Shown here: positions 1-30,100 of the stretch, piece after piece
Position numbering within the stretch: position 1 is the first letter of the stretch
Layout: each line of letters opens with the position of its first letter
Assembly (NCBI RefSeq): GCF_964355755.1
Contig: NC_092673.1
Span: 5,208,001-5,272,000 of the forward strand
Reading direction: 5' to 3'
DNA: 64,000 bases
From: Antedon mediterranea
Lineage: Eukaryota; Animalia; Echinodermata
The notes under the pieces: model-generated
The model's input: the letters and a program-made list of their open reading frames with translations, nothing else
The model's database searches: none
What the model was told of the DNA's origin: nothing
Position numbers and translations under genes: made by a program

Positions 1-1070
1 GGACACATATTGAAATGAAAAGATTTTTTAATTTATATTATTTTGTTTTTATTTTTTCTTGTAAATTTCATTTCTATTGTACATCACGCCCTGAAAACTT
101 TTGCTTAAACAAACTTTATGTGACAAAACAAAAATGTAATGTGCCCATATGGACATACCATATTTGGGCATATCACTACCATATTTGGGCTCATCACATT
201 TTTTTGTAGACAAAGCTTTAAAATGAGGACATTTATAGTTTGGTCTTTTGCACATATACATTGGATTTGAACATACCACAAAAAGTGGTCTTATGGTAAA
301 GTTTCTGCAGAATTTGATTCTCAACTTGGTTGCGAATTTAATCACTTTACTGCAGACACTGTCACCATACAGCCAGGGATGTATCCAACATTTTAGATTT
401 GGGGGTGGGGAGGGGGACCTGTTTAGTCCCCATCTAAATCCACTCCTGACAGCCACACCCAAAAAAACATTAGCCTGAAAGACAGAAAAATATTCGTTTA
501 TACATACAAAAAAACAGTAGGGCCTAGTTAATTTATAATTTCCATGTATTTGTCATTTGTATCATGACTCTGTCACCTCTACTCTACTAGTAAGTGCCGT
601 GACTTTAAAAGATTATGTTCTTTAGCGTTTTATCCCTCGGTGTCCCCTGGTGTGGTACCTCTTTTTATCTGGGTCTCTGTCTATTTGCCAACTCATTCAT
701 GTTTTATATATAATTAATAAAATTGTAGCTATTTTTGCTTTCAGTCGGTTTTATTAGTTTTGTTGTACAGTAAATTAAATGTTTACTTTACAGTATTGAA
801 AATATTTACACAACTTTAAAGGAATAGTTTTGTATTATATGATTATAAGTATAATTGATTAATTAAATTTCTGAACTAAAACAACAAAAATAACTTGCTT
901 TGATAAAATCATAAGGTGGCATTCAAATATAGTTTACAGACTTCCCAGTGCAATCGCAATAAAAAATCTTTTTTTCTGTAAAAGGATTATTTTTAATCAT
1001 CTCATATTTGTCCTTATTTACCAAAATGTCACTTACACTTTAAAATTTACATTTTAAATTTTTCTTGCAG

Positions 1071-1215
1071 ATGGTCAAACAAAATAAATCGATCAAAAGA
1101 AAAAGTGCCGCAATTCTTGGAAATAAATGGAACTCCATAGAAATCAGTTTGGACGATGATGACGATGACCCTCAGGTCAATAGTTCGTTGGAATCGGAAC
1201 AACAGCGACTAAATG
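1071..1215 (+). CDS. SHTN1: shootin-like exon (MVKQNKSIKRKSAAIL...EISLDDDDDD)
   Basis: ttgcag acceptor, G|gtatgt donor. Resembles the end of vertebrate shootin coiled coil 1 plus the acidic patch, so probably an internal exon. Confidence 0.75.
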
Positions 1216-4200
1216 GTATGTAGGCCTACAGTCTAAAGCTCTCGATTCTACACTATTAAACTTTATGTGTGTGCCCATATATAGACAAGATGATGTCATA
1301 TCACTACCATATTTGGGCACATCATACTTTTTTTGTCAAACTAGTTTTATAGTGTAGACAGAGGTTTATATCAAATGGTATGGTCCAGGTCTGAGGTATT
1401 GTACCCGAGCTGACATGTCCATGCTCTTTGCATATCTTTATTGATTACTTACATCATCCACATTAGTGAAGGCCTGATTTAATTTTTTAAGAAGTAACAA
1501 ATAACATTCAAATTCGCATTATATTATGTCAACTCTATCCAGGGCGCGCATAATCATCTGCCTGCCGTCCTGGGGCCACGAAAACATCATGTCGGGCATG
1601 TAGAACTTCACTGGCAGTGGCCTGATGGGCAACCTCACAAATTTTTTTTTTTTATATATAATTCTGCAAGTTTATGCCGTCTATACTGAGGAAATTCTGC
1701 GGCCTGAGTTTAATGCGAGGTTGAGGTGGTACACTCTTACATAGCGTTTTCTTGTAACAGTACATACAAAATGGGCAGGGCTAATTATTCTAATGAGGAT
1801 CTGATAGAAAGCTGTTGCATGTGTCAAGATTACTAAATATAACCATGCATAACCTACAAGTTCCTAGGGGAATGCGGTAGATTAATTCACCGTGGGTATG
1901 AATAGGAAATAATCAAAGGCCTTGGAAATATGATAACGACCAAAATAATATTTTAAAATTAATATGTTGATTTGTATGTTATTTTATTATTTTGGTCAGC
2001 GTCTATCACATGGAGTACCGCCCAATATTTTAAAGATAAATTTTTTAAGCTGGAGGTTATTTTAAAAACTAAACTTGTGTTTGTCCTTGTATCGTGTACT
2101 ACTGTACTGTAGACAGAAGTAACGTTTTATATCATCATAGATGAAGTTTATATAACTATATATAGTAATACATTACTGTTACTGATGTTACTGATGTATA
2201 TTCAATTCACATTTATTCAATGTTATTGTATTCGAGCCATAGTCAGAATATGTGAACGTTTTTTAAATTGTGATTGGCATAAAATATTACAAATACTTCT
2301 TCAATTTCCTTTGCACAAAAAAGTACATTAGAGTTAAAGGTTTTCATAGAATTGTTCAGTTTAGACACACGATCAAGGAAATGGAATTAAACTGTCCTTG
2401 TAAAAGAACAGAAACATTACCAAAAAATATATATTATGTTCCTCAGTCAATATTCTAAAAATGTGCATGAAATATTAGTATATTTTTATATTTTACACTG
2501 TCTGCTGTAACATTATGGTTTTTATAGGTTTGATTTTAAACTAAACTTTTTATCAAAGCCTTATTTTGGAAAGACGAGTGCAGATAAATAATTATGCTTT
2601 CAGAAATTTACAATTTGAGTGGTTTAAATGCATTCCAATCCCAAAGTCCGGGGTTCAATCCTCACCTCGTGCTAGGCTAGGTTTGAGTTCAAATAACTTC
2701 ATTAAGACTTATTATTTTATAAGAACTCGTTTATACAATAGTTTATCCATTCTGTAATTGCCGAGTTACTGTACTTACTTTTGTGGGTGTATGTACATTT
2801 TAAATATGTGTACTGCATATCTCAATTTTCCTCCTGAGCGAAACTGCTCCTTTTTGCTATTCACCCCAGGCAATCAGTTTCACTCTCATCTCTTTCTAAT
2901 TGGTCCTTAACATTTTTTTCTTTTTTTATGAATTTCTTCATGAACCAAAAAAAAAACAAATCTAATATTACTGTTTTTTTTAAAAAAAAGAATTAAGGGA
3001 TGAACTGACTGCATTACGGAAAGATTTAGATGTTGCCAACAAAGACAATAATGAGTTGAACGAGGAAATGATCACATTGAAACATGAAGTAAGTATGGTT
3101 ATAACCAATACAAAGAACAAGTTTAAAGCTGTGTTTACACGCACTAGATTTATTACATTAAAACATGAAGTAAGTATGTTTATAAACAATACCAAGAACA
3201 AGTTTAGAGCTGTGTTTACACGCACTAGAGTTATTACATTAAAACATGAAGTATGGTTATAAACAATACAAAGAACAAGTTTAAAGCTGTGTTTACACGC
3301 ACTAGAGTTATTACATTAAAACATGAAGTATGGTTATAAACAATACATAGAACAAGTTTAAAGCTGTGTTTACACGCACTAGAGTTATTACATTAAAACA
3401 TGAAGTATGGTTATAAACAATACAAAGAACAAGTTTAAAGCTGTGTTTACACGCACTAGATTTATTACATTAAAACATGAAGTAAGTATGTTTATAAACA
3501 ATACATAGAATCAGTTTAAAGCTGTGTTTACACGCACTAGAGTTATTACATTAAAACATGAAGTAAGTATGTTTATAAACAATACATAGAACAAGTTTAA
3601 AGCTGTGTTTACACGCACTAGAGTTATTACATTAAAACATGAAGTATGGTTATAAACAATACAAAGAACAAGTTTAAAGCTGTGTTTACACGCACTAGAG
3701 TTATTACATTAAAACATGAAGTAAGTATGTTTATAAACAATACAAAGAACAAGTTTGGAGCTGTGTTTACACGCACTAGAGTTATTACATTAAAACATGA
3801 AGTAAGTATGTTTATAAACAATACAAAGAACAAGTTTGGAGCTGTGTTTACACGCACTAGAGTTATTACATTAAAACATGAAGTAAGTATGTTTATAAAC
3901 AATACATAGAACAAGTTTAAAGCTGTGTTTACACGCACTAGAGTTATTACATTAAAACATGAAGTAAGTATGTTTATAAACAATACATAGAACAAGTTTG
4001 GAGCTGTGTTTACACGCACTAGAGTTATTACATTAAAACATGAAGTAAGTATGGTTATAAACAATACAAAGAACAAGTTTGGAGCTGTGTTTACACGCAC
4101 TAGAGTTATTACATTAAAACATGAAGTAAGTATGTTTATAAACAATACATAGAACAAGTTTAAAGCTGTGTTTACACGCACTAGAGTTATTACATTAAAA

Positions 4201-7200
4201 CATGAAGTAAGTATGTTTATAAACAATACATAGAACAAGTTTAAAGCTGTGTTTACACGCACTAGAGTTATTACATTGAAACATGAAGTATGGTTATAAA
4301 CAATACAAAGAACAAGTTTAAAGCTGTGTTTACACGCACTAGATTTATTACATTAAAACATGAAGTAAGTATGTTTATAAACAATACATAGAACAAGTTT
4401 AAAGCTGTGTTCATACGCACTAGAGTTATTACATTGAAACATGAAGTATGGTTATAAACAATACATAGAACAAGTTTAAAGCTGTGTTCATACGCACTAG
4501 AGTTATTACATTGAAACATGAAGTAAGTATGGTTATAAACAATACATAGAACAAGTTTAAAGCTGTGTTCATACGCACTAGAGTTATTACATTGAAACAT
4601 GAAGTAAGTATGGTTATAAACAATACATAGAACAAGTTTAAAGCTGTGTTCATACGCACTAGAGTTATTACATTGAAACATGAAGTAAGTATGGTTATAA
4701 ACAATACATAGAACAAGTTTAAAGCTGTGTTCATACGCACTAGAGTTATTAAATTGAAACATGAAGTAAGTATGTTTATAAACAATACAAAGAACAAGTT
4801 TAAAGCTGTGTTCATACGCACTAGAGTTATTACATTAAAACATGAAGTATGGTTATAATATAAACAATATAAAAATAAGTCCTAGACTCGGGTACCCCGA
4901 GTAACAAGTTTAAAGCCATGTTCAGATACACTAGAGTTAAGTCCACCAACCCATTCATTTATGATTATGATTTTTAACATGTGTTTGTTTCTAAAGCTTA
5001 ACTTCTTCATATGGTAACCCTGATTTAACCTTTTGCTTTCATTAGTTTCATTATTATTCCTTCACTTTATTGTCCTATAGAATACAGACCACAGGAAGTT
5101 TGATTGTAAACTGCTTCTGGTTTGCTCTTTGGTATAACAGATTGGATTTAAAACCATTACCAAATTATTATTAAAAGGAAACAAACCAAACAGATAAATA
5201 ACCCTATACTCGCTGATGCATAATATAGACACTGGTACCTACCTTATGCATACCTCATGGGGTATTAAGTATTGTCTAAATCTAATTGTATAAAATAACA
5301 TCTAGCCAATATCACAAATTGACAGTGTCCCAATGTTTACAGTTTGATCTGATTTCCCAACTGCACAATGGTTCTCTGATAAAAGAACATATATTACATA
5401 ATATAGATAGAAGTCGTAATAAATGTGAGCATAGGCCCTGTTTCTGCTGCCAAGAAAATACCGTATTTTATACGGTATTTTTTGAATACCGTATAATACC
5501 ATATTTTTTTGGCAGCAGAAACTGAGCTCATAAAAAAATACCGTATTTTGTATACCGTATTTTCCCAACAAAATTTGTGGATAAAATATGGTATTTACAA
5601 ATTTATACCGTATTTTTTGTACCCTTTTCTGCTGCCATGAGGTCAACATCGTGTTTTTATTTTCTGTCGCTGTTAGCTGTTTTACACACGTGTATAGATA
5701 TTCGGCGAAAATGTGGAGCAAAGACGTCACAGTAATTACTATATAAATCTGTGTGGGGAAGGAGGGGGTGGGGAAGCTAAATAATGTCCGGCCAACTAAA
5801 AGGTAATAAAAGGGACAACCACATTTATAAAGACATTTCTAAAAAAATAAAGCAGCAGGAGTACGGAATAGACCAAAGCAAGTAAATTCAAAGCTAAAGA
5901 GCCTGCGTAGCAGTACAACATTGCAAAAGACAATAACTCGGGGAGGGAACGAATTACTTGTCCCCATTACGATGTTTTCTGTGCTCTCACAACATCTCTA
6001 TCACTAGGGCTAGGCTGTTGAAAGTGAGACGTAAAACTTCCTTTATTGCAACTTTTAATTATCGACCAAATAAATGAATGGCAATTTGGGTAAAATGGAT
6101 GAAATTTAACACGACCACCCAAGAAGTATTGTTAGCAGAAACGAGGTACTAAAAAAATACGGTATAAAAAATACTGTATTTTGAGCAGTTGCAGCAGAAA
6201 CAGGCCCATAGAGATATACTCTATGATGTGAGGCAATAAATATAGCTTAAACAACCTCTATACAAATTGTCCTAATTTCGGCTTTGGTAATGTAGGCTTA
6301 TAAATATATGGTTACCGTACCTAATACTCAGGCCTTGTCTTTTTAAAATTGTAGATACTCAGGCCTTGTCTTTTTAAAATTGTAGGTGTGCTACAAATTG
6401 CACTCCTCAATACATTCAGGGGTGCCGTAGGTGTGCCGTTTGTATTTTGGTGTGTAGAAGTTTACCAAATTTAAGTGGGTTGTAAATCACACTCCTCAAG
6501 GGCTATTTAGGAGTGTGTTAGGTGAGTGATCGCACTCATGAAAAGAAAAGGTCTGAATACTGTGTACTATTGGATGGTTTCATTGGTCCATTCCAATAAA
6601 ACATACATGTGTTGAAACTGAAAGTTATTATATTTCTCTTGTATCAACAAAGATCCACAATATAATTTTATTATCAAATATATTTATGTTTATAAAATAA
6701 TATGGTATTTCCAACACAGGTAATTTCCTTTTCAATTTAATAAATTTATCTGTTAGTATGCCTACTGACTCTGCTAAGAATAGATATATACCGTATCACC
6801 TCAAGTATAATCTCACTTTGAGTCTAATACAACCCCTACTTTATGTTTGATTTCACAAACAGACATATCCCGGGTGTAGTCCCAGTATTGTCTTTTGGTC
6901 TGAATACGGCCTCTCTGTAGCCAGTTCAGATGAGTTTTTGCAAGAAATGTTTACCAATCATTTTTTTTTTTACCCAGGGTTTCCCCCGGGTATAGTCCCA
7001 CCCAAAAAATCAGCCTAATTTCGTGTTCTAGGAGGTTAGAATTATAACAGAGGATATACGGTATATATTATGTAAAACTCCACCCAGTGATATACAAAAC
7101 AAAAAGTATCAAACATATGCAGACATCCTACCATTAGACCACTGGGCCTTTAATGGTATAGTTGAAATTCGATTAAATTAAGATACATTTTGGATAAACC

Positions 7201-10200
7201 TTTGAAATACTTATATGAATTTATATGACCATAAATTTATTTTTTATTTTGTATATATATATAATATAATATAATAACATAATAATAATATTTAATTTAA
7301 TGTTGAAAGCACCTTTTATTTACACATGTGAAAGTATAAATAAAATCCTTAATACCTTGATTCTCTGCCAAAATGTTTCAGAGGCCTAATACACAGTAAC
7401 TTCTGACCTGTGTGACTCATTAATTAATCAACAAAAATTAGTCAAGGCTGGATTGCATGTAAATGAAACTATTTGCCAATGATAGACCCACAGAAAAAAG
7501 ATTTTTTTTTTCTACCTTAGTTGTCGACATACATCTAAATTTAATGACACTTGGCAAAAGTTTGTTGGAACTCGGATAAAACAATAGTTAAATATTTTTG
7601 TATATAATCATGTGATGATATACAGAAGCATGTCTATTGCATTACACCATAATATAAAAATTTGTCTAAAAAGTAATTCAAAATTAACATATATTAGACG
7701 AGCAGGAAGTATTTGCTTAAATAAATTTTTGTTGTGTCACTAAATTTGAGTAATGGCACGAATACCGGATGAATAAAAGAAGAATTGCACATGAAGATTA
7801 TTGGAAACTGTGTCAGAGGTCTGATCATACCGATTCAGGGATAAGCCCACTCTGGGGTACAGTAAGCTTGACGTACTCCAAATGTTATGCCAAATTATGC
7901 AATCATATTTGGATTCAAGGGGCGCCCGAATATTGAATTCGCTACAGTGAAAGGTATAAGCCAACCTCATCAAAATGGAGGTAAAATATGAACAGGAAAA
8001 ACTGTACTGTAGGCCTACTACTTGAAACGTAGACAATGGAACAAAATAGTATGTGATGTTTTAGTTGCACTTTAAAAAAGAAACAAGAACATAATATTCA
8101 TAATAGGTAAAACAAAAAAAAGGTCATTTGCAACAGAGGTATTTCTTTTGTATTTTGATTTGGGAAAATGTTTATATTTTTTTTTTTTTTTTTATTTCAG
8201 CTTGAACAAGAACGCATATCAAATTCTGATTTGAAAGATGCACTAAAGCAGAGAGACCGCGCAATACAGCAATTTAGTAGAGGTAACCTCATTTGTCATT
8301 CATTAATACTGTACTGCGTTCACACAGCCTAAGTTGCTCATGAGCAAGAATCAGCTTGTCTTGAATATACTGTACTTGAACACATTTCTAACAGAGCTGT
8401 GTGCCATATACAGGTATCAATACCAACATTTTGCCAGCGCGAGAAAAGGGCTTTATAGTAGCACTAGTGGAGTTGTGGCTTGGTGGTTATAATGCTGGGC
8501 TACCAATCCAAGGGTCCTGGGTTCAAGTCCTGTCATGTCAGGATTTTTCTAATGACACATTACAACTCCATTTCTAAAGTCTTGTAATAAGACTTTGTTT
8601 ATGTAGAGCATCTTGTCTATTTGTTTGTCTTGTGAACAAGATTGCTACCTTTAAGAAGAATACTGAATGAATTAGCTTATGGTTATCCTTGGTAATTTTT
8701 CTAAATATATAAAAAACAAAAAACTTGAGAAATCAAACTTAATTCAAATTTAAGAATGCACTTACTATTGTGACACTGATAGTAACTAATGTCTAATAAA
8801 AACAATTACTATTTAAATTATCTGATTTTGTTTCAGTATCTACTCTGGTTGTTAACGAATTTGAAGAAATTAGTGAAAATTATGAGAAAGAGGCATTACT
8901 TCGCAAAAAAGCTGAGTCTTTTGCAGCTAAGGTAATTAAAACCTGGTAGATTATATACATTCTATACTCATAAAAACAATTTTGGTTTTAATATTTGGTG
9001 TAATCAGTATAGTACTTTCTTTTGCAGTTGTTTTCATTACAAAATTAGTAAATTATTTAACATAAATTTACCTTGAAACAATAAATAATAATTTACAATT
9101 ATTAAGTTAATCAATATGTACATCATGATTTGGAAATTGTGCAAATTAAATGCAATTAATTGTTTAATTTATTTATTCTTTATACTGAGTGACCTCTTCA
9201 TTACAAGACTATTTTTCCAGAGGGCCTAGTAGAAGATTATCATCTGGACATTGGGAGACAATCCCCTACTCTTGTTGAATTTTGCATAGTACCATGTTCT
9301 TTATCATGCGAATTACATGTATTCGAAGGACGAGGCGATGACAGTGCATTATCTTGCTTAAGGAGGTTCCATGTTCTTTATTATTTGCATTATATCCCAT
9401 CCGAAGGATGAGGCAATGACAGTGAAGTATCTTGCTTAAGGAAGATACAAGCATTGTGGTACAGACAGATCTTGAACACATGCCTTTCATATAATCGGAT
9501 ATTCCTTGGTAGATTCCTATATTGTTTAGCTAATATTAAATGATGGTTTAATATACAGTGAGGCTTTTTGTATTCCAGATGTACCAGGAAAAGAAAGTAG
9601 TAGCAGAGGTTGCTAGGCGGCAGAGTCAAATCCTTCTTGATCCACCAGATGACAAATTTACACAAGCCATGAAAGAAATTGAAGAACTCAATTCAATGCT
9701 GGAAAAGACCGAAACACAAGAAAAGGTAATGCAGTAATAATGCCGGTACCAATCTTTATTGTTTTAAAACCAACATGAAAATAAAAACATCTGTCATATT
9801 GACTCTGGTATAATCCCTTTCCTTACACAAGCCTGTTATTTTCTTGTTTGAGTGTATTGAAAATTCGAACCTTCAGGCAAACCAAAAATAAAGTTCTATT
9901 TTTAGAAAATAATCAATCAACTGATCTATTTATGTAGCACTGTTACTCACTATCAGTGATACAGCACATGTTAACAGTTATAATTATACATACTTACTTT
10001 TTAAATAGTGATATCAACACCTGTAATTTGTCAACACCTAAATATTGATGTATTAACACACCTGTTATTAGTTATTCACACCTGTATATCAATGTACAAA
10101 CTTTTAGTAGTGATACACCATCTGCTGATAGGATAGGAAATTGCATTAAAAAAAATAACATGTAAACTATGATATTGAAATTTAGATTCAACCTGTAAAT

Positions 10201-13200
10201 AGTGCTCAAGAACCTTCTGTAAATGACATTCCAACATCTGATAAAACTCCATCTGATGTTGCTATTGAATCAGATTCAGTAGTAGCAGATCCCAATGAAG
10301 ATGTCAGTAAAGATGATGCCATTAACCAACATACAGGTGATGTTAAGTTAAGTAAGACAGATGTATCAGCAGATGTCAGTGAGGTTTCTGCTGAAATGCC
10401 TTTGCAATCTGGCAGAAATGGTGAATCACTGATAATAACTGGAGGATCAGAAGTAACTGACAAAAAAGCTGAACCTGATGAGAAGCAATCTAGTAAACCT
10501 GAAGAACCTACATCTTCTAACAAACCAGAAATACCTGAAAGAACTGTATCAGCTGTCAAAGTTGAAGAAACTAACTCCTCTTGTAATAAAGAAATACTTG
10601 AAACAAATGAAGAAGAAAGCAAAGCTGAAGAATCTACAGAAATACATGAAGAAACTGTGTTAGCTGTCAAAGTTGAAGAGACTATGTCTGCTATCAAACC
10701 AGAAATACCTGAAAAAAATGTAGAAGTTGGTAAAGCTGAAGAACCTAAGTCTTCTAACAAACCAGTAATACCTGAAAGAACTGTATCGGCTGCTAAATAT
10801 GAAGAACCTAAGTCTTCAAACAAACAAACTGAAAAGAATGTAGAAGTTGGCAGTTCTGAAAAGCCAAAGCCTTCTAGCAAACCAGTAATACCTGAAAGAA
10901 CTGTATCGGCTGCCAAAGTTGAAGAACCTAAGTCAGCTAACAAACAAGAAACACCTGAAAACAATGAAGAAGTTGGCAAAGCTGAAGAGCCTAAGTCTTC
11001 TAACAAACCAGTAATACCTGAAAGAACTGTATCGGCTGCTAAATCTGAAGAACTTTCTAAAAAACCCAGTCAGGAAACATCTTCCAAACTCTCTGAGGTA
11101 ACTTTCAGAAAACTTTTTAAACAGTTTCCACGTTCCTGGGTAGTGACAAGACTATATACTTATTTATGAGATATTATACAGACTAATAGAGAAAAATGCT
11201 GCCTAGTAATCCCTAACAAGTATTATACCTTCATTGATTGATAGTTTAAAATGTTTTAAAATGCAGTCTGAAAACTGGATGTTAGTGTTTGACATCTGCT
11301 GTTGATAAATTAATTACCATTATGCACTTTTCTGATAATAGATACTTTTTATTATAAAGTACAACAGAAATCATGATTAATACTAATTATAATTCTCTAT
11401 GATAATTTATTTTTACAGAGCAATGACCAAATGATTAAGGTATTTAGAATATTTCTATCAAATATTTATGGTGTTAGTATTAATAGTGGTCAATAGTAAT
11501 ACCATATTCAGACACAATCAAATTGTAGAGAGTATGATTAAGTTTATGCCATATCACAATATCGGCTAACATTTCTGGATTCGCGTTTAAAAGAAAATGT
11601 TTGCGATCTGATTATAGGAGTAAAAAAGCACCGAACTGTACCGAGTAACAATTGCGATATTGATTATGCATTGCGAATTGGTGTGATTATGTAATGTTTG
11701 TCTGAATAGGATTTACTGTGGCTCCATATTAAGAAATAAAATATATTGTAAAACTGTATATTGTACACTAAATGTTTGCACTCGAAAGCCGCACACCTAA
11801 CTGGAAAATAGATTCACCCTATTTAATCAATGTGTATGTTAACATAATTATTTTGTTGGTATTAAATTTGAAATATATTTATATGTATATAAACACACAG
11901 GCACAGAACAATAATTCTAAACCACCCGGTGATATACTGAAATTTAATTAATTAAAACTGAAATGATAAGATGAGGGGAAATCTGTGAGAATGAGAAAAA
12001 GTTTGTGCACTCTTTGTGTTACCAATCAGTGTACCATGTCCCACACAACTGGCTTAACCTATATATTGTGCCAGTTCTGCAGTACATATCATTTCGAAAC
12101 CTGAGCTGCACTGACGAGATCTAATAAGATCGAAACAGTACTGTCTGCAGATTGGATATATATAAATAAAAAACCGAATTACTGAAAAAAATGACAATTC
12201 TGTCAGGGTATCAGTATATATATATTTTTCATTTTTAAATAATTAAATATTTGTTTTATTATTGCATTCAGAAAATTCTAACTATGATGGAAAGTATTAC
12301 TGATACTGAGGTGAATGAACTCTTGTATATACATGCACTATTGCAATAAAAATGAATTGAATCTTTCTTTTGCTGTATTAGAAAAGTACCACTTGTAGTA
12401 TCTTAGAGCTTAACCTTTGTCTACACTATTAAATTAACCAAATATGGTAGTGATATGACATCATTCTGTCCATAAATGGGCACATCGTATTTTTTTGTCA
12501 CATAACGTTTGATACGGTAGTGTAGACAGAACCTTAGAGTCGGAAACAATTCCTACATTCTATAGGTATTGATGGTGGGAGGGTGGTACTAGGCAGGGGT
12601 ATCTAGTCATACATTGTGACCAGGTTAAAGCTAAAGCAACAACAAAAACCTATGCTAAAGCTCTGTCTACACTATCAAACTAGTTGACGTTGACTAGGAC
12701 AAAAAAGTGTGATGTATCCAAATATAGTAGTAATATGACCAAATATGGTAATGATATGACATCATCATGTCCATATTTGGGCACATCACATTTTTTTTTC
12801 ACATAAAGTTTGATAGTGTAGACAGAGCTTTATTTAATATAGACTGCTAACACACAAGGGCAAATTATAGTTAAACTAATCATATATATTTGCAGTTCTT
12901 ATTTTTAACATTTATGTATATATTACTTAATAATTAATCATTTTTACAGGGAACATATTCTTTTTCTATTATATTTTAGCAATTTATTATTTATATTTAC
13001 AGCATATTTACTTTAGTATTTGTATCTATCTGTTGTGATCTGTTTCTATACAGTAGCGCCTCTCCTTGGAATACCCATTCAGAGGAGGACATATTGTTGT
13101 TTCTTTGTTTGTTTTATCTTTATACTGGGTGACCTCTTCAGTCAAAGACTGATCTCCCAGAGGGCCCAGTTGGTGATCAGTGGCTGTGATAAGTAACCCC

Positions 13201-16200: not shown

Positions 16201-19200
16201 TTGTAGTTTTGATAAGTTAATCACTTCTGCAGAAAAAAAAAATTTTCACTTAAAAAAGACAAAACAGTTAAATTCACCAAAAACGCATTGACTGCCAGAC
16301 AATTTGACTATTTTTTCCTTTAAATTAAATTTTTTCAGGTACCGGTAAATATTTTTTACATTTTTTTGTCAAAGTGGATAACTATCATGGAACGTCAAAA
16401 TGGCATATTCAACAAACCAAAATTTTGAGGGGGAAACTATCTTTAACCATCTTCTTAATTATAATTAGCACTGTAGATAAATATAATACCTGTGTTGTTG
16501 TATATTGTTTGTAAACGGTATGTGATACTGTAACTAGTCTGGATGCACCATTGTTTGTGGTGTTGGTCCCACTTTCTTTGAGGATGTTAGAGTTTATTAA
16601 TCAATTTCAAGGCATTCTTTAACTTTAAGTCACTGTATATATTGTATTTGTAAACAGCTATATTGCCGTTGTTTTTTTTATATAATATTTATTAACAATT
16701 GGCAGACTACTTGAACTGCAGCCTACAAAGCAACAATCTTTGTTCATTCATTCACTCAAACTCATACCTGATGAAACAACGTTTGATTAATACTGTACTA
16801 ATGTTTGTGTTGCCAGATCCCTTACAGGAAAAGCATACTGCCTTAATAGATGAAATGATGAACAGGATAAAGAAAGGAAGAGTTGGACTTAAACCTGTAA
16901 ATGAGGTAAGCTTGCCTGAAACAGGAAGTATTAGAATGGTTTTCAAGAGTCATGAAGAGAATGGACATATAGAAATATGATCTGGTTTTGGGCCAGTATT
17001 TGAAAAAGTATCTATCCTTAAATGTTAGGGATTAGTCACTTACCATCTTATAAATGTAATTACAGAGACTTAGCTATTTGTTGTAGATTTGAACATTTAA
17101 AAAAAAAAGAAAATAAACTTTGTAATATTGTGATTGAAAATGATTATATGAAAAAAACACGATTAAAAATAAAATTCAAATGTCTTTCTGTATTTTACAT
17201 TTGAAGCAACCAAAGCCTATTGAAAGAGGGAGAAGCTCTAAACTGAGTCGCAAAAACACTCACACACCAGCCTTTATGGAACTCAATGGACTTTTGGTAG
17301 GTGACAATTCATTATTATACTAGGTATAAATCCAACTCCTAAAAGATGAATGCAGTCTGTCAGAGATTGTAGCTAAAGCTCTGTCCACACTATCAAACTA
17401 GTTTGACAAAAAAAGTGTGATATGATCACACTTTTTTTGTCAATTGTCAATATATTTAATATAGTAGTGATCGAGTCAAATGGCGAGCGGTTAAGGCAGG
17501 GGCGCCGTTTAGCATACATCGACAAGAGTTCGGGCCCACTCGCTCCTAGTTCTGTTGGTGGCACAAGTCTTCTCAGATAAGGACTGTAAACCGTAGGTCA
17601 CAGTTATAACCTTTAAAGAACCTAGTTAATTATTCAAGAAGAGTAAAGGGTTTTGTCACATAAAGTTTGAGCTTTAGATTGTTTGTCTCAAGTGAAAACA
17701 GAAGTAACAAAACTTCCTATTTGAGATGTATAAAGAACACTTGAAAAGACTTGAAACCATCATGTGAAACTGTTCATAATAATGAAACCATTTTTAATAA
17801 ATGAAACAAATGTATTACAATGGGAGAAATACAACCAAGCTCTAAGAACAAACACATTATAATAAAAGAATATAAGAATCAGATTGAATATAAAAATCTT
17901 TTCTTTTAAATTTGTGTTTGTATTTATATGAAGATATTAATATATTAGGCCTAACATTATAAGAAATACTGGCAGCTAAAAAGTTGTAAAAAGATTAGTT
18001 ACCTTTAATCTTCAAAACTTGAAACACCAACCCCCACAATTCCTTAATACTTACTTCCTTCTAATATCATCAATAATTAAAAATATGTACAGTATTATAC
18101 TTGTGGACTGATATTCCAATGTGTATATGTATCTTTTTTATTTCAGAAAAAGAACAATAAAAACCAGCCTCCATTAATCAAATCCTCGTCCGAATCCGAT
18201 GCTTCTCCAGAGTTAATGAAGATTATGAACCGTAGACGTCATAAGTTAGATATAGAGGGATCTCCCAAAGAGAATGGACAAAAAGGTAAGATTTTCAATT
18301 TGTTTATTTTATTTGCTCAATATATATTGTTGCTGATGAATACTTCTACTTGATTAAAAAATTACCTGAAATTGTTTTATTATGATTTTTTACATGACAG
18401 ACATTTCCTTTAAAATAAAAAGCTGGCTATAATATATTCAAAACAGCAACTATAATTATTATCATAATAAACTGTTTTTATCAGATAATATGGATATTTC
18501 AAATGGCAATGCAGTTAGTCCTCCTCCAATCAGGTTTGTTGAAAGGATTGTGGGATTGCTAGCATGTGAATGATATGAAAACAAAAACTTGCATTGTGAT
18601 TATACAACTGCCTTGCATTGTTCTTATCGTATTCATGCAGTAGAACCGTTATGAAGGGGACACTTTCAGACTGTTACTGTCCCTTTTACGTTTAACAGGA
18701 GATTGTCCCGTTAATAGGGCAGTTGTCCCCAAAATAGGGGTGTCCCAATAAACAGGTTTCTACTATTTGATTTGATACAATTCCTCTCCTTTTTATTTAT
18801 CTAATATTACTAATAGGATTGTAATTCAGTGTAGTCCCATCTGAAGATCATTGCTTGGGATTCGAACAACTACTTTTTGTAAAAAATTCTCATACAATTA
18901 TTTGGGACATTACTTTATTTTGTTTGTTTATGTATTATTGCATGTCTGTAGTAGTATTATTTGGTTTTTATTCATATATGCTTGCGATACTTTTTTTGTG
19001 TTAAGACTGATTAATATTTATTCATATATTTTATCAAGAGATTGATTGAATGCAGGTTTTAGTAAATAGTAAAACTTTTCCAACATAAAATTGTTTTACT
19101 TTACAGGAGAAACAGCCTCTTAAAGAAAACAAAACTAAAGACACCACCAGCAGTTGCTAAGAAACCAGTAACAAGGTCAGTGTCTTCTACGACAGCACGA

Positions 19201-19920
19201 CCTTTCAACCTTAATCATTCCAGAAGTCGGGTAAGAGCTCTACAGGTCAGATACGAGGAAGCTTGTTCCGCGGAAGAAACCGAATCAATCGGTAGTTTAT
19301 CACCAATGAACTCACCGACCTTTGACTTGCCTGATTTGTTTCCTTCTGCTACTCCTTCTTTATCGTCGTTATCGCCCGCATCTGTCAAGAGGAATGGCAT
19401 AATCGGAGTACCTCAACCATGGACTCCTTCCAGGACTTCATCTAGTTCCAGCACGGCATCGGGAAAAGGCACACAATGGATGGTACCACTTATTTCTCCT
19501 ATATCGCCAGCAACTTCCTTTTCATCTCAATCGTCATGGTCGTCATCCTCATCATCGTCGCCCCCACCGATTCCTCCACATGGGCCATTTTCAAATATAC
19601 CATCGCATCATACTAACGGCTATTCTCGATCCTCCTCGCCGGCAAATTCACAAATTATCGAACCTATACAGAACAGAACTAAAAGCTCAAGATCGCCTTT
19701 GTCGTTTCTTTTAAAATCGCCAAGTTTTTCTCGATTTTCAATGAATAGTAACAATGAGCTCACAGAAAGTGGCGACAATCATATATACGAAGCGTACGAG
19801 TTGTTTGAAGAGGAAGAAGATAATCCATTGTATGAAAGCATAGACCAGCCTTGTAGAGATTATAAGATACGCGAAAGATATTACCCAAATTGTAATAACC
19901 CTTTGACAAATTCAAGGTAA
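1071..19920 (+). CDS. SHTN1: Shootin-1-like protein, multi-exon, 5'-partial (upstream exons probably outside the window)
   Basis: Exons 1071-1215, 2991-3088, 8201-8282, 8837-8931, 9579-9725, 10186-11097, 11419-11439, 12272-12310, 14129-14370, 14683-14732, 14864-14887, 16817-16905, 17207-17296, 18147-18285, 18485-18533, 19107-19920. All GT-AG and phase-consistent (3036 nt). Peptides match recalled shootin-1 motifs: RVSTLVVNEFEEISENYEKEALLRKKAESFAAKM..RRQSQILL, a poly-Pro run after the coiled coil, DEMMNRIKKGRVGLKPVN, ELNGLL, ELMKIMNRRR. Confidence 0.85.
2991..3088 (+). CDS. SHTN1: shootin-like coiled-coil exon (ELRDELTALRKDLDV...ITLKHE)
   Basis: Phase 1 to 0, heptad pattern, GAA|gtaagt donor. 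Acceptor is A-rich (ttttttttaaaaaaaag). Confidence 0.75.
3070..4860. repeat. 81/77-bp minisatellite containing an exon end and splice donor, 23 copies of CATGAAGTA
   Basis: Unit ttacattaaaacatgaa-gtaagtatgtttataaacaatacaaagaacaagtttaaagctgtgtttacacgcactagagtta. Confidence 0.97.
5434..6207. mobile_element. non-autonomous DNA transposon (PIF/Harbinger-like), 774 bp
   Basis: 17-bp TIR GGCCCTGTTTCTGCTGC / GCAGCAGAAACAGGCCC (1 mismatch), ATA/ATA 3-bp TSD, subterminal AAATACCGTATTT repeats. Confidence 0.85.
6330..6540 (+). repeat. dispersed repeat, second copy at 40037-40203
   Basis: About 170 bp shared (aggccttgtctttt...gcactcctcaatacattcag...gtgagtgatcgcactc). Confidence 0.8.
8201..8282 (+). 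CDS. SHTN1: shootin-like exon (LEQERISNSDLKDALKQRDRAIQQFSR)
   Basis: Strong poly-T tract, ttcag acceptor, G|gtaacc donor. Confidence 0.85.
8469..8700 (+). mobile_element. tRNA-derived SINE (family B)
   Basis: tggcttggtgg and gggttcaagtcc boxes. The body gactttgtttatgtagagcatcttgt also occurs reverse-complemented at about 36070-36140. Confidence 0.7.
8837..8931 (+). CDS. SHTN1: shootin-like exon (VSTLVVNEFEE...LRKKAESFAAK)
   Basis: LRKKAESFA shootin motif; tttcag / AAG|gtaatt. Confidence 0.9.
9579..9725 (+). CDS. SHTN1: shootin-like exon (MYQEKK...RRQSQILLDPPDDKF...)
   Basis: ttccag / AAG|gtaatg; RQSxxLL motif. Confidence 0.9.
10186..11097 (+). CDS. SHTN1: large symmetric E/K/S/P-rich repeat exon of the shootin-like gene (304 codons)
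   Basis: 912-nt open frame bounded by tttag and GAG|gtaact, phase 0-0; internal EEPKSSNKPVIPERTVSAAK repeats. Confidence 0.75.
11419..11439 (+). CDS. SHTN1: 21-nt microexon (SNDQMIK)
   Basis: ttttacag / AAG|gtattt, frame-preserving. Confidence 0.55.
12106..12150 (+). ncRNA. type I hammerhead ribozyme
   Basis: ctgca-CTGACGA-gatct(aata)agatc-GAA-acag(ta)ctgt-C-tgcag. Complete catalytic core, three stems, GUC cleavage triplet. Confidence 0.88.
12272..12310 (+). CDS. SHTN1: 39-nt short exon (KILTMMESITDTE)
   Basis: attgcattcag / GAG|gtgaat, frame-preserving. Confidence 0.55.
12659..12829. mobile_element. Harbinger-type MITE copy
   Basis: Full TIRs and internal 21-bp subrepeats. Confidence 0.88.
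13095..13403 (-). mobile_element. tRNA-derived SINE (family A)
   Basis: A box TGGCCGAGCGG, B box GGTTCGAGGC, A-rich tail; related copies at 17468-17652 and 26665-26916. Confidence 0.85.
14129..14370 (+). CDS. SHTN1: shootin-like exon: coiled coil plus poly-proline
   Basis: ...ELKKVKIQLEVAAEKLRPPPPPPPPPLP; cttag / GA|gtaagt. Confidence 0.9.
14683..14732 (+). CDS. SHTN1: shootin-like exon (DLLKKILKKSPDDKKDK)
   Basis: Phase 2 to 1, tttag / G|gtaatg. Confidence 0.8.
14864..14887 (+). CDS. SHTN1: 24-nt microexon (GRKAKAQA)
   Basis: tacag / G|gtatgg, symmetric phase 1. Confidence 0.6.
15149..15485. mobile_element. MITE with long imperfect inverted termini
   Basis: aactggcatgagtaacacttggctcac pairs with gtgagtcaggtattactcgtgccagtt; inner ctcactaaaatatt pairs with aatattttagtgag. 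Confidence 0.7.
15641..15797. repeat. 38-bp tandem repeat, 4 copies
   Basis: gttgatgtggaccagtacaccagggtaacccctgctaa. Confidence 0.9.
16817..16905 (+). CDS. SHTN1: shootin-like exon with WH2-like motif (DEMMNRIKKGRVGLKPVNE)
   Basis: Matches the recalled vertebrate motif EEMMDRIKKGVHLRPVN. Confidence 0.9.
17207..17296 (+). CDS. SHTN1: shootin-like exon (...PAFMELNGLL)
   Basis: ttgaag / TTG|gtaggt, 90 nt. Confidence 0.75.
17468..17652 (+). mobile_element. tRNA-derived SINE (family A), nested in a MITE
   Basis: tggcgagcggttaag, gagttcgggccc, shared body ttctcagataaggactgtaaaccgtaggtc. Confidence 0.8.
18147..18285 (+). CDS. SHTN1: shootin-like exon (...ELMKIMNRRRHK...)
   Basis: tttcag / G|gtaaga. 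Confidence 0.85.
18485..18533 (+). CDS. SHTN1: shootin-like exon (DNMDISNGNAVSPPPIR)
   Basis: Phase 1 to 2, needed to bridge the flanking exons. Confidence 0.75.
18638..18764. mobile_element. Tc1/mariner-pogo-like MITE relic
   Basis: cagtagaacc..aagggacact / gtgtccc..ggtttctact; relatives at 42126-42357, 52388-52540, 53432-53672, 63545-63652. Confidence 0.6.
19107..19920 (+). CDS. SHTN1: probable terminal exon, Ser/Pro-rich disordered tail
   Basis: ttacag acceptor, long open frame ending TAA at 19918-19920. AG|gtaatt at 19916 could instead be a donor. Confidence 0.75.
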
Positions 19921-22981: not shown

Positions 22982-25900
22982 ATGGCAACATCACTTGTTC
23001 AACCATATGTAGACCAGGAGAATGCAACATCTGTGAATGCATCAAGTAGAAAGTCAAGTACATCAGCAGCTTCTAGGCCTAGTAGTCAGTAAAATTCTAA
23101 TGCTTTTGAACTGAAATAATAATAATAACCCAACCAACTGAATACTGGGATTACAATGATTTTAATTCATCCTCAACTCCTACATCCTCCTCAGCATTAT
23201 ACCCCCTAAATAATTAACATTATACCCCCTAAATAATAAACATTATACCCCCTAAATAATCAGCTTTATACCCCCTAATAATCAACATTATACCCACTAA
23301 ATAATCAACATTATACCAAAGTAACACAAGAATCTCCTGTTCAATTTTCATTCAAAACACAGTATTGGAAGTACAGGGTTAAAAGGTCAAACTGGGCGAC
23401 GTCATTGCACAGCATGGAGCAGCGCCCTCTCCAAACTATGAAGTCAAAACTATTAATTCTTATAGAGGGCTCAGTCAATTACTCTATCCCCGCTATAGTA
23501 TTAGCAGATCCCCTCTATGATTTTGACTTTCTAATTTGATGCGGACGCGCTACTCCATGGCTCACAATGGCGCCACCCATTAGCTCTATTCTAAACAACA
23601 ATGCCTTTCGAAATTGTTACAAGCTTTGGACGAACAGGAGATTCTTGTGTTACAAGTTCTTTGATTATACCCAATAATAAATTGGCATTATACCTCTAAA
23701 TAATCAACATTATACCTCTAATAGCAATTGGCCATGTTGCGGATCTCCTTACATTTAAAATATCCATGTTGTTGCCGCAGCCACCTATTTCACATTCTAG
23801 TCTTCTGCTACATGTTAAATCTCTATGCATACAAAATGTATTCCTTTCACATTATGTTTCAGTAATAGGAAAGACATTCTCCAATGCATCAAGTCTAGCT
23901 ACGCCTCGTCGTGCCTTTGGTGACCTCAGTAATGTGACGAGCACAGCCAAGAAACCCAGTGGTGCTATAAAGAAAGGACCAATCAATAGGAAAATGCCGT
24001 TGAAGAAGTCAACACTGACTCCAAGTGCACAGGTACCATAAAATTGATATTAGGGAGGTTTCAAAACGCTACAAAATCATATTCGTGTGACAGCTCAATT
24101 TTGATAAATAGCAGTTTTTAAAGTCCTCACTCGCTTTGATGTTATGCTAACCAAGCAACATATACAGCAATCATATTTTGGATGGTGCCCTCAATATTTC
24201 GTCGCCATGCGAAACAGATTTTTACTGGCTTATGAACATACGACGTTTTCGTTTTCGTATTTGTAGCATTGCGAAACCTCCCTAATAATTTCACTTTGGT
24301 ACAAAAAAATTATGTTTTGGTATTATTAGAGATTTAGTATAACATTCACACACCAGGCAATTGGACTGCTTTGAACTACGCCCTTGTCCAACAGGCCTCA
24401 AGACCAAAGTATTCAAACTAATTAAGATACCATGCATCTTATAAATAGTTATTTTAAAAAATTAATATAGCACAATATTGACATTTGGTATACTTTTTAT
24501 TAGAACCCTTTCATAGAAGAAGAACATAATTCAGTGCCCTCTATTTTGCATTGAAACATAGCTGTGTCTGTAAACTTCAAGGTGCTGCCAAAACAATTTA
24601 GAGATCTTTTTAAATTGGTTACGATGAGACCATGTCTACCTAATATTTTGTTTAGTGTATTTTATATATATTTATAGTTATGAGACAAACACAATGCATG
24701 TTCTACTTTTCTAGTCCATTAAAAAACCAAAGGCCAAGTTAATAGACACTACGAAATCGGCTAAACCTGAAGATGCCTATCCTCCAATTGAAAGTATGCA
24801 CATCTTTGAGGACATCGAATCTGGTAATAACAAGTTTTTCTTCTTTTAGTTTGTATGTAAATTGTATTAACATGTGAGCATGAAACTGAACACCAACCAA
24901 CTAAATCTCTGTAACATTATGTGACAAAAAATGTGATGGGCCCATATATGGACATGATGTCATATCACTACCATATGTGGGCACATCACACTTTTTTTTC
25001 AAACTAGTTTGATAGTGTAGACAGAGCTTAAGAAGATGGAAGCCTACAAAGAGTTGCTATCTACATTAGATTTGCACAAAACCAGGAAGGCCCATCTGCA
25101 TATGGAGCAAAAGATTATCATCTTCACCGTTTATAGATATAATTAATAATTGATTTCTTTCACTGGGGTGTTTGCCTGTCAAATTATAGGCCTACTATAA
25201 ATTGATAGTGCTTTAGTAATACATTTGAATGTATGTATGAAAGCTTCTATTCTGTGTAATATCATTGTACAATTTCTGTATAGGTAAATAATCGTGACAG
25301 TCTAGCTTAATTATTTTGTAGAATTTGAGTTACCACCTGAGCACCGTCTATCAAACATGAACCTTTTTAAACGTACCCTGCCTATAATGCAGACAGGGCT
25401 ACGAGATGTGGATGATATAGTTCCAGACTTCTCTTTTCTGACCCTGCATCCAATCGAGAGACCATACACAGACACATCAGGTACTATTTACATATCTAAT
25501 CAAAGAGATGATTCTCTGCCATGTGTGGGTTTGAATACAGATCAAATCGGTTTTATCCTTGAGGCAAGACATTTTACTTGCATTTGCCTCTTTCCACCCA
25601 GGTGTACAAATGGGTACCTGGTACAGTTTAGACACAACTTTACATTGATTACTAGCTGCATTATGGGAGCTATGTTTCCATATGCGTTTGATCCAAAAAT
25701 GACCAGGGTAATAATATATACAGCGTTTAGAGATTTCGCAACATAAGGTGCTTTATAAATCCAGGATATTGTTTAGTTTTGCTTAGTATGCAATACAGTA
25801 TAATAATAGCTTTTTAGTGCTGGCACATAATACAGTAACTTTTTATGTCAATAACGTATGATTTTATTTTGTTGCAATATGTAATAATACAATGTGTGAT

Positions 25901-27114: not shown

Positions 27115-30100
27115 ACCTCCTCTATCTAGGACAACTACACCCAGAACAACTGCCCCCTTGGATAACTAACACTCTATCAAGGACAACTACACCCAAAGCA
27201 ACTACCCCTTTATCTAAGAAAAATATGCCCCTTGGATAACTACTACTCTATCTACTACAACTACCCATAGGACAACTACCCCTCTATCTACTACAACTAC
27301 CCATAGGACAACTACTATTCTATCTACTACAACTACCCATAGGACAACTACCCCTCTATCTACTACAACTACCCATAGGACAACTACCCGTAGGACAACT
27401 ACCCCTTTATCTAGGACAACTATCCATAGGACAACTACCCCTCTATCTATACAACTACCCATAGGACAACTGTCCTTTATCTAGGACAACTACCCATAGG
27501 ACAACTACTCCTCTATTTACTACAACTACCCATAGGACAACTGTCCTTTTATCTAGGACAACTAACCATAGAACAACTACTCCCCTATCTACTACAACTA
27601 CCCATAGGACAATTACTATTTTATCTAGGACAACTATCCATAGGACAACTACCTCTCTATCTACTACAACTACCCTTTATCTAGGACAACTACCCATAGG
27701 ACAACTACCCCTCTATCTACTACAACTACCCATAGGACAACTACCCGTAGGACAACTACCCTTTTATCTAGGACAACTATCCATAGGACAACTACCCCTC
27801 TATCTATACAACTACCCATAGGACAACTGTCCTTTATCTAGGACAACTAACCATAGGACAACTACTCCTCTATTTACTACAACTACCCATAGGACAACTG
27901 TCCTTTTATCTAGGACAACTAACCATAGAACAACTACTCCCCTATCTACTACAACTACCCATAGGACAATTACTATTTTATCTAGGACAACTATCCATAG
28001 GACAACTACCTCTCTATCTACTACAACTACCCATAGGGCAACTACTCCTCTATCTAGGACAACTACTCCTCTACCTACTACAACTACCCATAGGACAACT
28101 ACCCCTTTATCTAGGACAACTATCCATAGGACAACTACCCCTCTATCTACTACAACTATCCATTGGACAACTACCCCTTTTCTATGACAACTACCCATAG
28201 GACAACTACTCCTCTATCTACTACAACTACCCATAGGACAACTACCCTTTTATCTACTACAACTATCCATTGGACAACTACCCCTTTTCTATGACAACTA
28301 TCCATAGGACAACTACCCCTTTTTTCTACTACAACTACCCATAGGACAACTACCCGTTTATCTAGGACAACTACCCCTTTATCTACTACAACTATCCATT
28401 GGACAACTACCCCTTTTCTATGACAACTACCAATAGGACAACTACTCCTCTATCTACTACAACTACCCATAGGACAACTACTCCTCTATCTACTACAACT
28501 ATCCATTGGACAACTACCCCTTTTCTATGACAACTACCCATAGGACAACTACTCCTCTATCTACAACTACCCATAGGACAACTACCCCTTTATCTACTAC
28601 AACTATCCATTGGACAATTACCCCTTTTCTATGACAACTACCCCTCTATCTACTACAACTACCCATAGGACAATTACTCCTCTATCTACTACAACTACCC
28701 ATAGGATTGACAACTACCCCTTTATCTACTACAACTATCCATTGGACAACTACCCGTAGGACAACTACCCCTTTATCTAGGACAACTATCCATAGGACAA
28801 CTACCCCTCTATCTATACAACTACCCATAGGACAACTGTCCTTTATCTAGGACAACTAACCATAGGACAACTACTCCTCTATTTACTACAACTACCCATA
28901 GGACAACTGTCCTTTTATCTAGGACAGCTAACCATAGAACAACTACTCCCCTATCTACTACAACTACCCATAGGACAATTACTATTTTATCTAGGACAAC
29001 TATCCATAGGACAACTACCTCTCTATCTACTACAACTACCCATAGGGCAACTACTCCTCTATCTAGGACAACTACCCATAGGACAACTACTCCTCTACCT
29101 ACTACAACTACCCATAGGACAACTACCCCTTTATCTAGGACAACTATCCATAGGACAACTACCCCTCTATCTACTACAACTATCCATTGGACAACTACCC
29201 CTTTTCTATGACAACTACCCATAGGACAACTACTTCTCTATCTACTACAACTACCCATAGGACAACTACCCTTTTATCTACTACAACTATCCATTGGACA
29301 ACTACCCCTTTTCTATGACAACTATCCATAGGACAACTACCCCTTTTTTCTACTACAACTACCCATAGGACAACTACCCGTTTATCTAGGACAACTACCC
29401 CTTTATCTACTACAACTATCCATTGGACAACTACCCCTTTTCTATGACAACTACCAATAGGACAACTACTCCTCTATCTACTACAACTACCCATAGGACA
29501 ACTACTCCTCTATCTACTACAACTATCCATTGGACAACTACCCCTTTTCTATGACAACTATCCATAGGACAACTACTCCTCTATCTACAACTACCCATAG
29601 GACAACTACCCCTTTATCTACTACAACTATCCATTGGACAATTACCCTTTTTCTATGACAACTACCCCTCTATCTACTACAACTACCCATAGGACAATTA
29701 CTCCTCTATCTACTACAACTACCCATAGGATTGAAAACTACCCCTTTATCTACTACAACTATCCATTGGACAACTACTCCTCTATCTACTACAACTTCTC
29801 ATAGGACAACTACCCCTCTATCTACTACAACTACCCATAGGACAACTACCCCTTAATCTACTACAACTATCCATTGGACAACTACCCCTTTTCTATGACA
29901 ACTACCCATAGGATAACTACTCCTCTATCCACTACAACTACCCATAGGACAACTACCCCTCTATCTACTACAACTATCCATAGCACAACTACCCCTTTAT
30001 CTATGAAAACTATCCATAGGGCAACTACCCCTCTATCTACTACAACTACCCATAGGACAACTACCCCTCTACCTACTACAACTATCCATAGCACAACTAC

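Follow-up and report, generated by a model that had tools for sequence, protein, structure and literature searches.

A minisatellite spanning an exon-intron junction, with 22 probably silent copies of a splice donor, in a putative crinoid shootin-1-like gene

Background

The closest described system is the 37-bp VNTR of intron 7 (IVS7) of human F7, in which splicing is reported to use the most upstream donor alone out of 5-9 identical ones, the others being activated only after those upstream have been destroyed (Borensztajn et al. 2006, PMC1557585). Several other human genes have the same layout. CBS carries a 31-bp VNTR in IVS13, described as c.1444_1467+7(16_21) (PMC2630376) and also named in PMC1395315, and the F7 paper cites 6-16, with 25 pseudo-sites, LMNB2, with a 100-bp unit, and intron 4 of PDGF, with an 81-bp unit in 16-18 copies and use of the authentic donor alone (PMC1557585). 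Total silence of the copies is not the rule, as two proximal pseudo-sites are said there to be used beside the real donor in both CBS and 6-16 (PMC1557585). Among invertebrate deuterostomes there are the "mirage" minisatellites of amphioxus (lancelet) in Adh3 and in globins BflGb6 and BflGb9, which are described as tandem copies of exon-intron boundaries under concerted evolution, with edges that are not homogenised and with splicing reported to be normal (PMC3087553). Passages of PMC10078293 deal with repeats of up to 20 bp and have nothing specific to donor-spanning arrays. No echinoderm junction-spanning minisatellite was found among the literature matches listed, which is weak evidence that no such case has been published.

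The array that we discuss lies in a 64-kb stretch of crinoid DNA, referred to as the window. It resembles that of F7 IVS7 in that the first monomer lies across the exon-intron boundary, the intron repeats the donor without change, and splicing uses the most upstream copy. It differs in having 23 donors rather than 5-9, an in-frame unit of 81 bp rather than one of 37 bp, about 18 exonic nt per unit rather than 4, and a donor that is stronger, and its host is an echinoderm. The layout is the same as in CBS, 6-16, LMNB2 and PDGF and the copy number similar, and PDGF has the same unit length, but whereas two pseudo-sites are used in CBS and 6-16, none was seen in use in the crinoid at contig level. 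The differences from the amphioxus mirages are the crinoid host, the presence in two species and the in-frame units. Most likely the crinoid array is an unremarkable repeat of the kind known from human and lancelet genes. It extends the list of junction-spanning minisatellites with an echinoderm example common to two species, and it conforms to the rule of preference for the most upstream donor, here over as many as 15 identical copies.

The host gene

The protein encoded in the window (P0001) is named "uncharacterized protein" in RefSeq. Its N-terminal coiled-coil region is homologous to annotated shootin-1-like proteins, with residues 20-296 having 74% identity to that of Anneissia japonica (P0004; E 2e-106) and 34% identity to that of Diadema antillarum (P0005/P0006; E 1e-27), and on the basis of this homology we class the crinoid host gene as shootin-1-like. 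Pfam searches with eight single exons gave no family over the cut-off, the coiled-coil hits all being sub-threshold. The Anneissia and Diadema proteins are colinear with the window protein across the array-bearing junction and have no insertion there, while the long acidic repeat exon (10186-11097) of the window protein is missing from the Diadema protein.

All features are on the forward strand. The upstream coding exon (1071..1215), which has a phase-1 donor, corresponds to residues 106-153 of P0003. It is followed by a 98-nt coding exon (2991..3088) that ends in ITLKHE, and the last 15-19 nt or so of this exon seed the repeat. The authentic 5' splice site, donor 1 (GAA/GTAAGTAT, 3089..3096), has 9 of 11 matches to a U1-complementary consensus. 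The next coding exons are at 8201..8282, 8837..8931 and 9579..9725, the last being 100% identical to part of P0001. The region 4860-10500 is crowded with interspersed repeats.

Structure of the array

The 64-kb window has 23 copies of CATGAAGT, every one of them within 3083-4841. Our recount agrees with the initial annotation, which had reported 23 CATGAA/GT donors divided into 16 of GTAAGT type (CATGAAGT then AAGT) and 7 of GTATGG type; we place the latter at donors 3, 4, 5, 8, 16, 18 and 23. Letters that tell the donors apart lie about 16-20 nt upstream of each. Fifteen of the later donors are the same as donor 1 letter for letter from -6 to +8. The 22 donor-to-donor units (3070..4846) comprise 16 of 81 bp and 6 of 77 bp; they include 16 distinct sequences with a mean pairwise identity of 93%, and TRF calls the array at 3074-4849, with period 81, 22.2 copies and 95% matches. 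Each unit consists of the final 15-19 nt or so of exon 2991-3088 plus about 62-66 nt of intron, the first monomer crossing the exon-intron boundary and the donor being reiterated in the downstream intron.

Neighbouring units have on average 4.0 differences as against 6.0 for units at least 8 apart, units 1 and 2 have private changes and the terminal copy is degenerate, a pattern of local homogenisation with divergent edges like that described for mirage arrays (PMC3087553). Donor 23 and a degenerate last copy of the intronic portion occupy 4847..4939; the right-hand breakpoint is at about 4939, and contigs of three runs (X5, X6 and X7) cross from unit to unique flank in the terminal copy. A 22-nt near-palindromic insertion in this copy (4881..4902) is present in the runs of organism A and missing from those of organism B, a second species with introns about 5% diverged.

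The reading frame of exon 2991-3088 is open past donors 2 (at 3169) and 3 (at 3250) and closes at an in-frame TAA (3260..3262) that is contained in all extensions to donors 4-23; translation thus bears out what had been claimed for the 81-bp unit, the open frame and the stop. Donor 2 (3170..3177) would add 27 aa in frame, and donor 3 (3251..3258), which is of the weaker GTATGG form with 6 of 11 consensus matches, would add 54 aa; use of either was not seen in the records compared. The exon is 98 nt long with donor 1 and would be 179 nt with donor 2, 260 nt with donor 3 and 337-1856 nt with the later donors. Six of the 22 units are stop-free, and units 1 and 2 are both among them (chance 0.065 under random order). 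It had also been said that each unit has AG signals 20-22 nt before its donor. This holds for the TAG at 22 nt, found in 22 of 22 units, while the second AG, at 20 nt, is present in only 19 of 22.

Presence in other sequence data

The array is real and not an assembly artefact. In X1, a DNA-like run, four array contigs stand at 3.1-8.6 times single-copy depth, as compared with 4.5-12.3 expected from the window, in a comparison for which contig letters were rebuilt from the listed differences, contigs 3091-3143 and 3099-3143 being left out because one of their changes would have been a guess. The depth is about 0.7 of expectation in each of the four contigs, and this shortfall relative to the k-mer multiplicity of the window is what could be said for a repeat over-expanded in assembly. 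We give that explanation almost no credence, given the multi-copy depth in X1 and in the runs of organism B, where it reaches about 7.5 times single copy, and the 16 distinct unit sequences standing in ordered blocks. X1 may be the sample behind the window and is in that case not independent of it. The array contig of X5, an RNA-like run, is at only 1.4-1.9 times intron depth as against 3-9 times single copy per contig in X1, and although contig depth is not copy number, the X5 individual may on this account have a much shorter allele than that with 23 donors.

Splicing of the array-bearing exon

X5 includes a single 423-nt contig, of depth 124, over 2990-3088. Its length matches four spliced exons (99+82+95+147), taking in those at 8201..8282, 8837..8931 and 9579..9725, and the loose end behind 3088 is the start of exon 8201. 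An X5 contig also has a loose end before 2986 that derives from exon 1071..1215. The junction of 3088 to 8201 is thus read from the loose end of a contig and not from one stretch spanning both sites. X5 is marked "RNA?", the kind having been guessed, but the spliced contig and the exon depth of 105-124 as against 6-24 for intron fit RNA; it is the one RNA-like run in the analysis, in the form of contigs. All three RefSeq isoforms hold the translation spliced at donor 1, so that the most upstream donor is that of the main mRNA in both data sets. A later donor joined to 8201 was found in none of the five aligned X5 records, contigs being a form of data that drops rare forms, and a unit-derived peptide in none of the six proteins compared.

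The 423-nt contig runs unbroken over intron branches of depth about 6-23, and alternative junctions could therefore go unseen at levels under roughly 10-20%; there may be low-level leakage to later donors, as contigs lose rare forms. NMD is a poor excuse for the lack of later-donor junctions in the X5 individual, since its collapsed 81-bp unit is stop-free. The initial annotation had proposed 23 competing donors, for which we find no support: the sole junction seen is 3088 to 8201. It had also put the array forward as a natural test of donor choice, and formally the locus does qualify, but its donors are without visible competition and the test was already run on human F7 in 2006 (PMC1557585).

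Interpretation

We are confident that this is an exon-intron-junction minisatellite, with an 81-bp piece of about 18 exonic and about 63 intronic nt in 22 head-to-tail copies, and that the mRNA seen joins donor 1 to 8201. The 22 later donors are likely to be silent pseudo-sites, which are skipped because splicing selects the donor closest to the acceptor of the exon. The array would have begun with a tandem duplication having breakpoints at about 3070 in the exon and about 4939 in the intron, and the extra copy was probably cost-free, as the unit length is divisible by 3 and the copy lay downstream of the real donor. Unequal exchange or slippage could then have expanded and partly homogenised the array and added the 77-bp form with its 4-nt deletion. 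The sharing by organisms A and B suggests that expansion is older than their split, or else was recurrent from a shared seed. At contig level donor 1 is the splice donor in use, and the F7 experiments and exon definition would account for this if preference goes to the functional donor lying furthest upstream. Any rare transcripts that leak to donors 4-23 would include the stop and would likely be degraded by NMD.

The alternative with most in its favour, although we regard it as unlikely, is that donors 2 and 3 are leaky or regulated and give isoforms whose shootin-1-like coiled coil is longer by 27 or 54 residues in frame. Donor 2 matches donor 1 from -6 to +8, units 1 and 2 lack stops, minor forms may be hidden in contigs, and human CBS and 6-16 are described as using their two proximal pseudo-sites (PMC1557585). 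Against this, the junction is in none of the five X5 records and none of the three annotated isoforms, orthologues lack the insertion, and random pieces of intron would give a stop-free 81-bp unit in about 9% of cases (0.27 x 1/3). The fraction of beta-formers is 0.48 in the 27-aa insert as against 0.15 in the coiled-coil stretch of the host, and the insert puts the heptads out of register (27 mod 7 = 6). We think it very improbable that the array is a dose-tunable AS-NMD or decoy-U1 element, in which later donors or pseudo-exons lead to NMD and array length sets the output of the gene. There are stops in every extension past 3262 and in the 20- and 22-nt pseudo-exons, the array is kept in two species and depth hints at length differences among individuals, but there is no junction evidence, a later junction is absent from the X5 records despite the stop-free unit, and the F7 work is reported to have seen no competition even from stronger pseudo-sites (PMC1557585). 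A broader version, distinctly doubtful in our view, would have a ladder maintained in two crinoid species, its in-frame first units and 54-nt pseudo-exons giving tissue- or stage-specific isoforms in which the coiled coil is broken, or its products being bound for NMD, in proportion to individual array length (perhaps from about 3 to 23 donors). If true it would act as a splicing rheostat in an invertebrate and be an incipient coding repeat. Were donors 2 and 3 or the internal pseudo-exons used in a regulated way, or were transcript output to change with array length, the locus would offer a series of natural alleles for the study of donor competition in a non-mammal.

A recursive splice site has an acceptor juxtaposed to a donor (YAG/GT). 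There are 0 occurrences of AGGT in 3070-4860, and the array is thus no substrate for recursive splicing, as had been suggested for it. Nor do the 20- and 22-nt pseudo-exons offer a route to new coding exons, since they are out of frame and meet an immediate stop. Each unit does have AGs followed by a donor, 54-nt pseudo-exons (after TAG in 12 units and AAG in 10) and 48-nt pseudo-exons would be in frame and stop-free, and intron gain from mirages has been put forward as a hypothesis (PMC3087553). However the tract at the acceptor for the 54-nt form is A-rich, with a pyrimidine fraction of 0.47, this acceptor lies 27 nt after a donor, and an exon or intron made with an AG and a donor from within the repeat is absent from the spliced X5 contig and the three isoforms, a comparison that rare use could escape. 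We consider it scarcely credible that the array serves as a recursive-splicing substrate or a nascent source of new exons or introns.

Inspected by eye, two other intronic arrays in the window are without an exon end, that at 61833-62433 beginning about 35 nt past a minus-strand donor and that at 38319-38962 lying mid-intron. A rough estimate, with 13 mapped donors or an assumed 30 or 40 as input, gives about 0.10 (13 donors) to 0.30 (40 donors) donor-hitting arrays per window of such repeat density, which also counts against the AS-NMD or decoy explanation: in this window, chance comes close to accounting for an array that falls on a donor.

Array structure

A shootin-1-like gene of a crinoid holds a real junction-spanning minisatellite, of an already known kind, at about 3070-4846 (+). 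The initial annotation's count of 23 CATGAA|GT sites, all within 3083-4841 and comprising 16 GTAAGT and 7 GTATGG, was reproduced by script on the window, as was the open frame of the exon through donors 2 and 3 to a stop (TAA, 3260-3262). The 22 donor-to-donor units comprise 16 of 81 bp and six of 77 bp, and TRF gives a period of 81, 22.2 copies and 95% matches. Each unit was also said to carry two AGs just before the donor: the TAG at 22 nt is in 22/22 units, but the second AG at 20 nt is in only 19/22. Of exon 2991-3088 the unit takes in no more than the final ~15-19 nt, and the intron part ends in a degenerate last copy reaching ~4939, from where the intron is unique. Exon length would be 98 nt with donor 1 (the 5' splice site behind 3088), 179 with donor 2, 260 with donor 3 and 337-1856 nt, stop included, with the rest.

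Donor 1 from -6 to +8 is repeated exactly in 15 later donors, and against the U1-complementary consensus the donor-1 type scores 9/11 and the 77-bp form 6. Adjacent units differ at 4.0 positions and units at least 8 apart at 6.0, and units 1 and 2 carry private changes; local homogenisation of this sort is what ordinary minisatellite turnover would produce.

Array DNA in two species

In the DNA-like run of organism A (X1), contigs over 2850-3270 have an exon depth of 34 (single copy) and array depths of 58-301 per contig, and the array is thus multi-copy DNA. Four contigs could be reconstructed from their listed differences (two others were dropped, with one change guessed); their depth over single copy is 5.7, 7.4, 8.6 and 3.1, where the k-mer multiplicities in the window are 8.2, 9.5, 12.3 and 4.5. 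Each reaches about 0.7 of expectation, a shortfall that coverage bias or a second, shorter allele could explain. X1 is possibly the same sample as the window source and so not independent. In organism B, a second species (X6 and X7, one study), intron contigs are ~4-6% different, and donor-bearing units occur at the same place at 2.6-7.5 times single-copy depth and run into the same flank. The two species thus have the array, or its seed at the least, in common.

In the terminal repeat copy, organism A (X1 and X5) has a near-palindromic insertion of 22 nt (4881-4902, +) that is absent from organism B, where the units enter the flank directly. Because the depth in its bin far exceeds single copy, the insertion may be part of a dispersed repeat.

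Host gene and donor used

An 826-aa RefSeq protein labelled Antedon mediterranea (feather star), one of a cluster of three isoforms, includes a stretch with 100% identity to exon 9579-9725. Its residues 20-296 match proteins named shootin-1-like of Anneissia japonica (74%, E 2e-106) and Diadema antillarum (34%, E 1e-27). Splicing of six exons via donor 1 (1071-1215, 2991-3088, 8201-8282, 8837-8931, 9579-9725 and 10186-11097, all +) gives a stop-free translation of 493 aa that is present in 3/3 isoforms. RefSeq gene models lean on RNA-seq. Unit-derived peptide was found in 0/6 fetched proteins, and orthologues aligned over the array-bearing junction have no insertion.

X5, from a sample of organism A other than X1 and guessed to be RNA, has an exon depth of 105-124 against 6-24 in the intron, and includes intron-skipping contigs. 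One contig (423 nt, depth 124) runs through 2990-3088 into the first letters of exon 8201, and its length is exactly 99+82+95+147, giving four spliced exons; it comes from one run with no NMD block and bridges intron branches of depth ~6-23. Over 2850-3270, 0/5 X5 contig records join 8201 to donor 2, to donor 3 or to a unit end, contigs being a form of data that prunes minor branches. The main splicing is via donor 1, the only junction seen, and the competition among donors that had been proposed was not borne out in these contigs. In X5 the array is represented by a looped contig of 111 nt (81+30), whose unit is stop-free and matches window unit 22 exactly, at only 1.4-1.9 times intron depth. 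This individual may have a much shorter allele, which makes the result weaker for the 23-donor allele; on the other hand NMD would not hide later donors there, as the unit is stop-free, if the collapsed unit represents its array. We consider it very improbable that the array acts as a ladder of variable length, yielding isoforms or NMD products and retained in both species.

In organism A a run of A precedes the AG at the acceptor of the array-bearing exon (2975-2990, +); the tract in organism B is shorter and more T-rich.

Comparison with known systems, and the role of chance

PMC1557585 describes several such repeats. In human F7 a 37-bp VNTR places 4-8 identical pseudo-sites downstream of the authentic donor; splicing takes the most upstream donor alone, and the next is active only once that is destroyed. 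PDGF (81-bp unit, 16-18 copies) uses the authentic donor only, CBS (15-20 copies) uses two pseudo-sites too, 6-16 uses two of 25, and LMNB2 is in the same list. The CBS unit, c.1444_1467+7(16_21), has 24 exonic and 7 intronic nt (PMC2630376), and for the lancelet 'mirages' splicing is normal, with intron gain proposed only as a hypothesis (PMC3087553). No echinoderm case of a junction-spanning minisatellite was among the literature matches listed, which is weak evidence. Donor 1 and its 15 copies differ in position, and by analogy with human F7 (PMC1557585) the most upstream donor alone would be chosen.

TRF shows about nine non-coding arrays of period at least 20 in the window. The expected number with a seed spanning a donor is 0.10 for the 13 mapped donors, or 0.23-0.30 for 30-40 assumed donors, so that a single case can be explained without a special cause. 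Among random intron pieces ~9% should give a stop-free in-frame unit, and the chance that both first units are open is 0.065 under random order, a mild oddity and no sign of selection.

Recursive splicing had also been suggested, and the array has no AG|GT; the 20- and 22-nt pseudo-exons are out of frame and reach a stop within four to seven codons. Beyond the initial annotation, each donor also has AGs 54 and 48 nt upstream, which predict in-frame, stop-free cassette exons, with a TAG acceptor in 12/22 units, A-rich tracts and acceptors only 27-33 nt past a donor; none was seen in the X5 contigs of the one run. The 27-aa in-frame insert would be likely to break the coiled coil, as it is rich in beta-formers (fraction 0.48 against 0.15) and 27 mod 7 is 6.

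Other features of the window

The acidic 912-nt exon 10186-11097 (+) has degenerate 63/126-bp coding repeats; it is missing in Diadema and has another repeat pattern in Anneissia. The three annotated isoforms have a short GETAS end. Between 18286 and 19107 a small candidate exon (18486-18534, +; ~49 nt, counted by eye) would change the frame and so replace that end by a Ser/Pro-rich tail of ~270 aa that has tyrosine motifs (19107-19920, +; ORF 19066-19920), and is a possible frame-switching cassette exon. In Diadema the orthologues also end in a long tail, similar in character.

An ORF piece at 23700-24041 (+) has the motif RRAFGDLSN, which we take to resemble a securin D-box, and ORF pieces of a multi-exon gene at ~34500-62600 (-) presumably resemble a KDM3/JMJD1 histone demethylase. 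TRF found further minisatellites at 27199-31901 (36 bp), 38319-38962 (35 bp), 55387-56236 (23 bp) and 61833-62433 (99 bp). The last starts ~35 nt beyond a donor on the minus strand; each unit has a donor-like GAG|GTACCG but no exon end.
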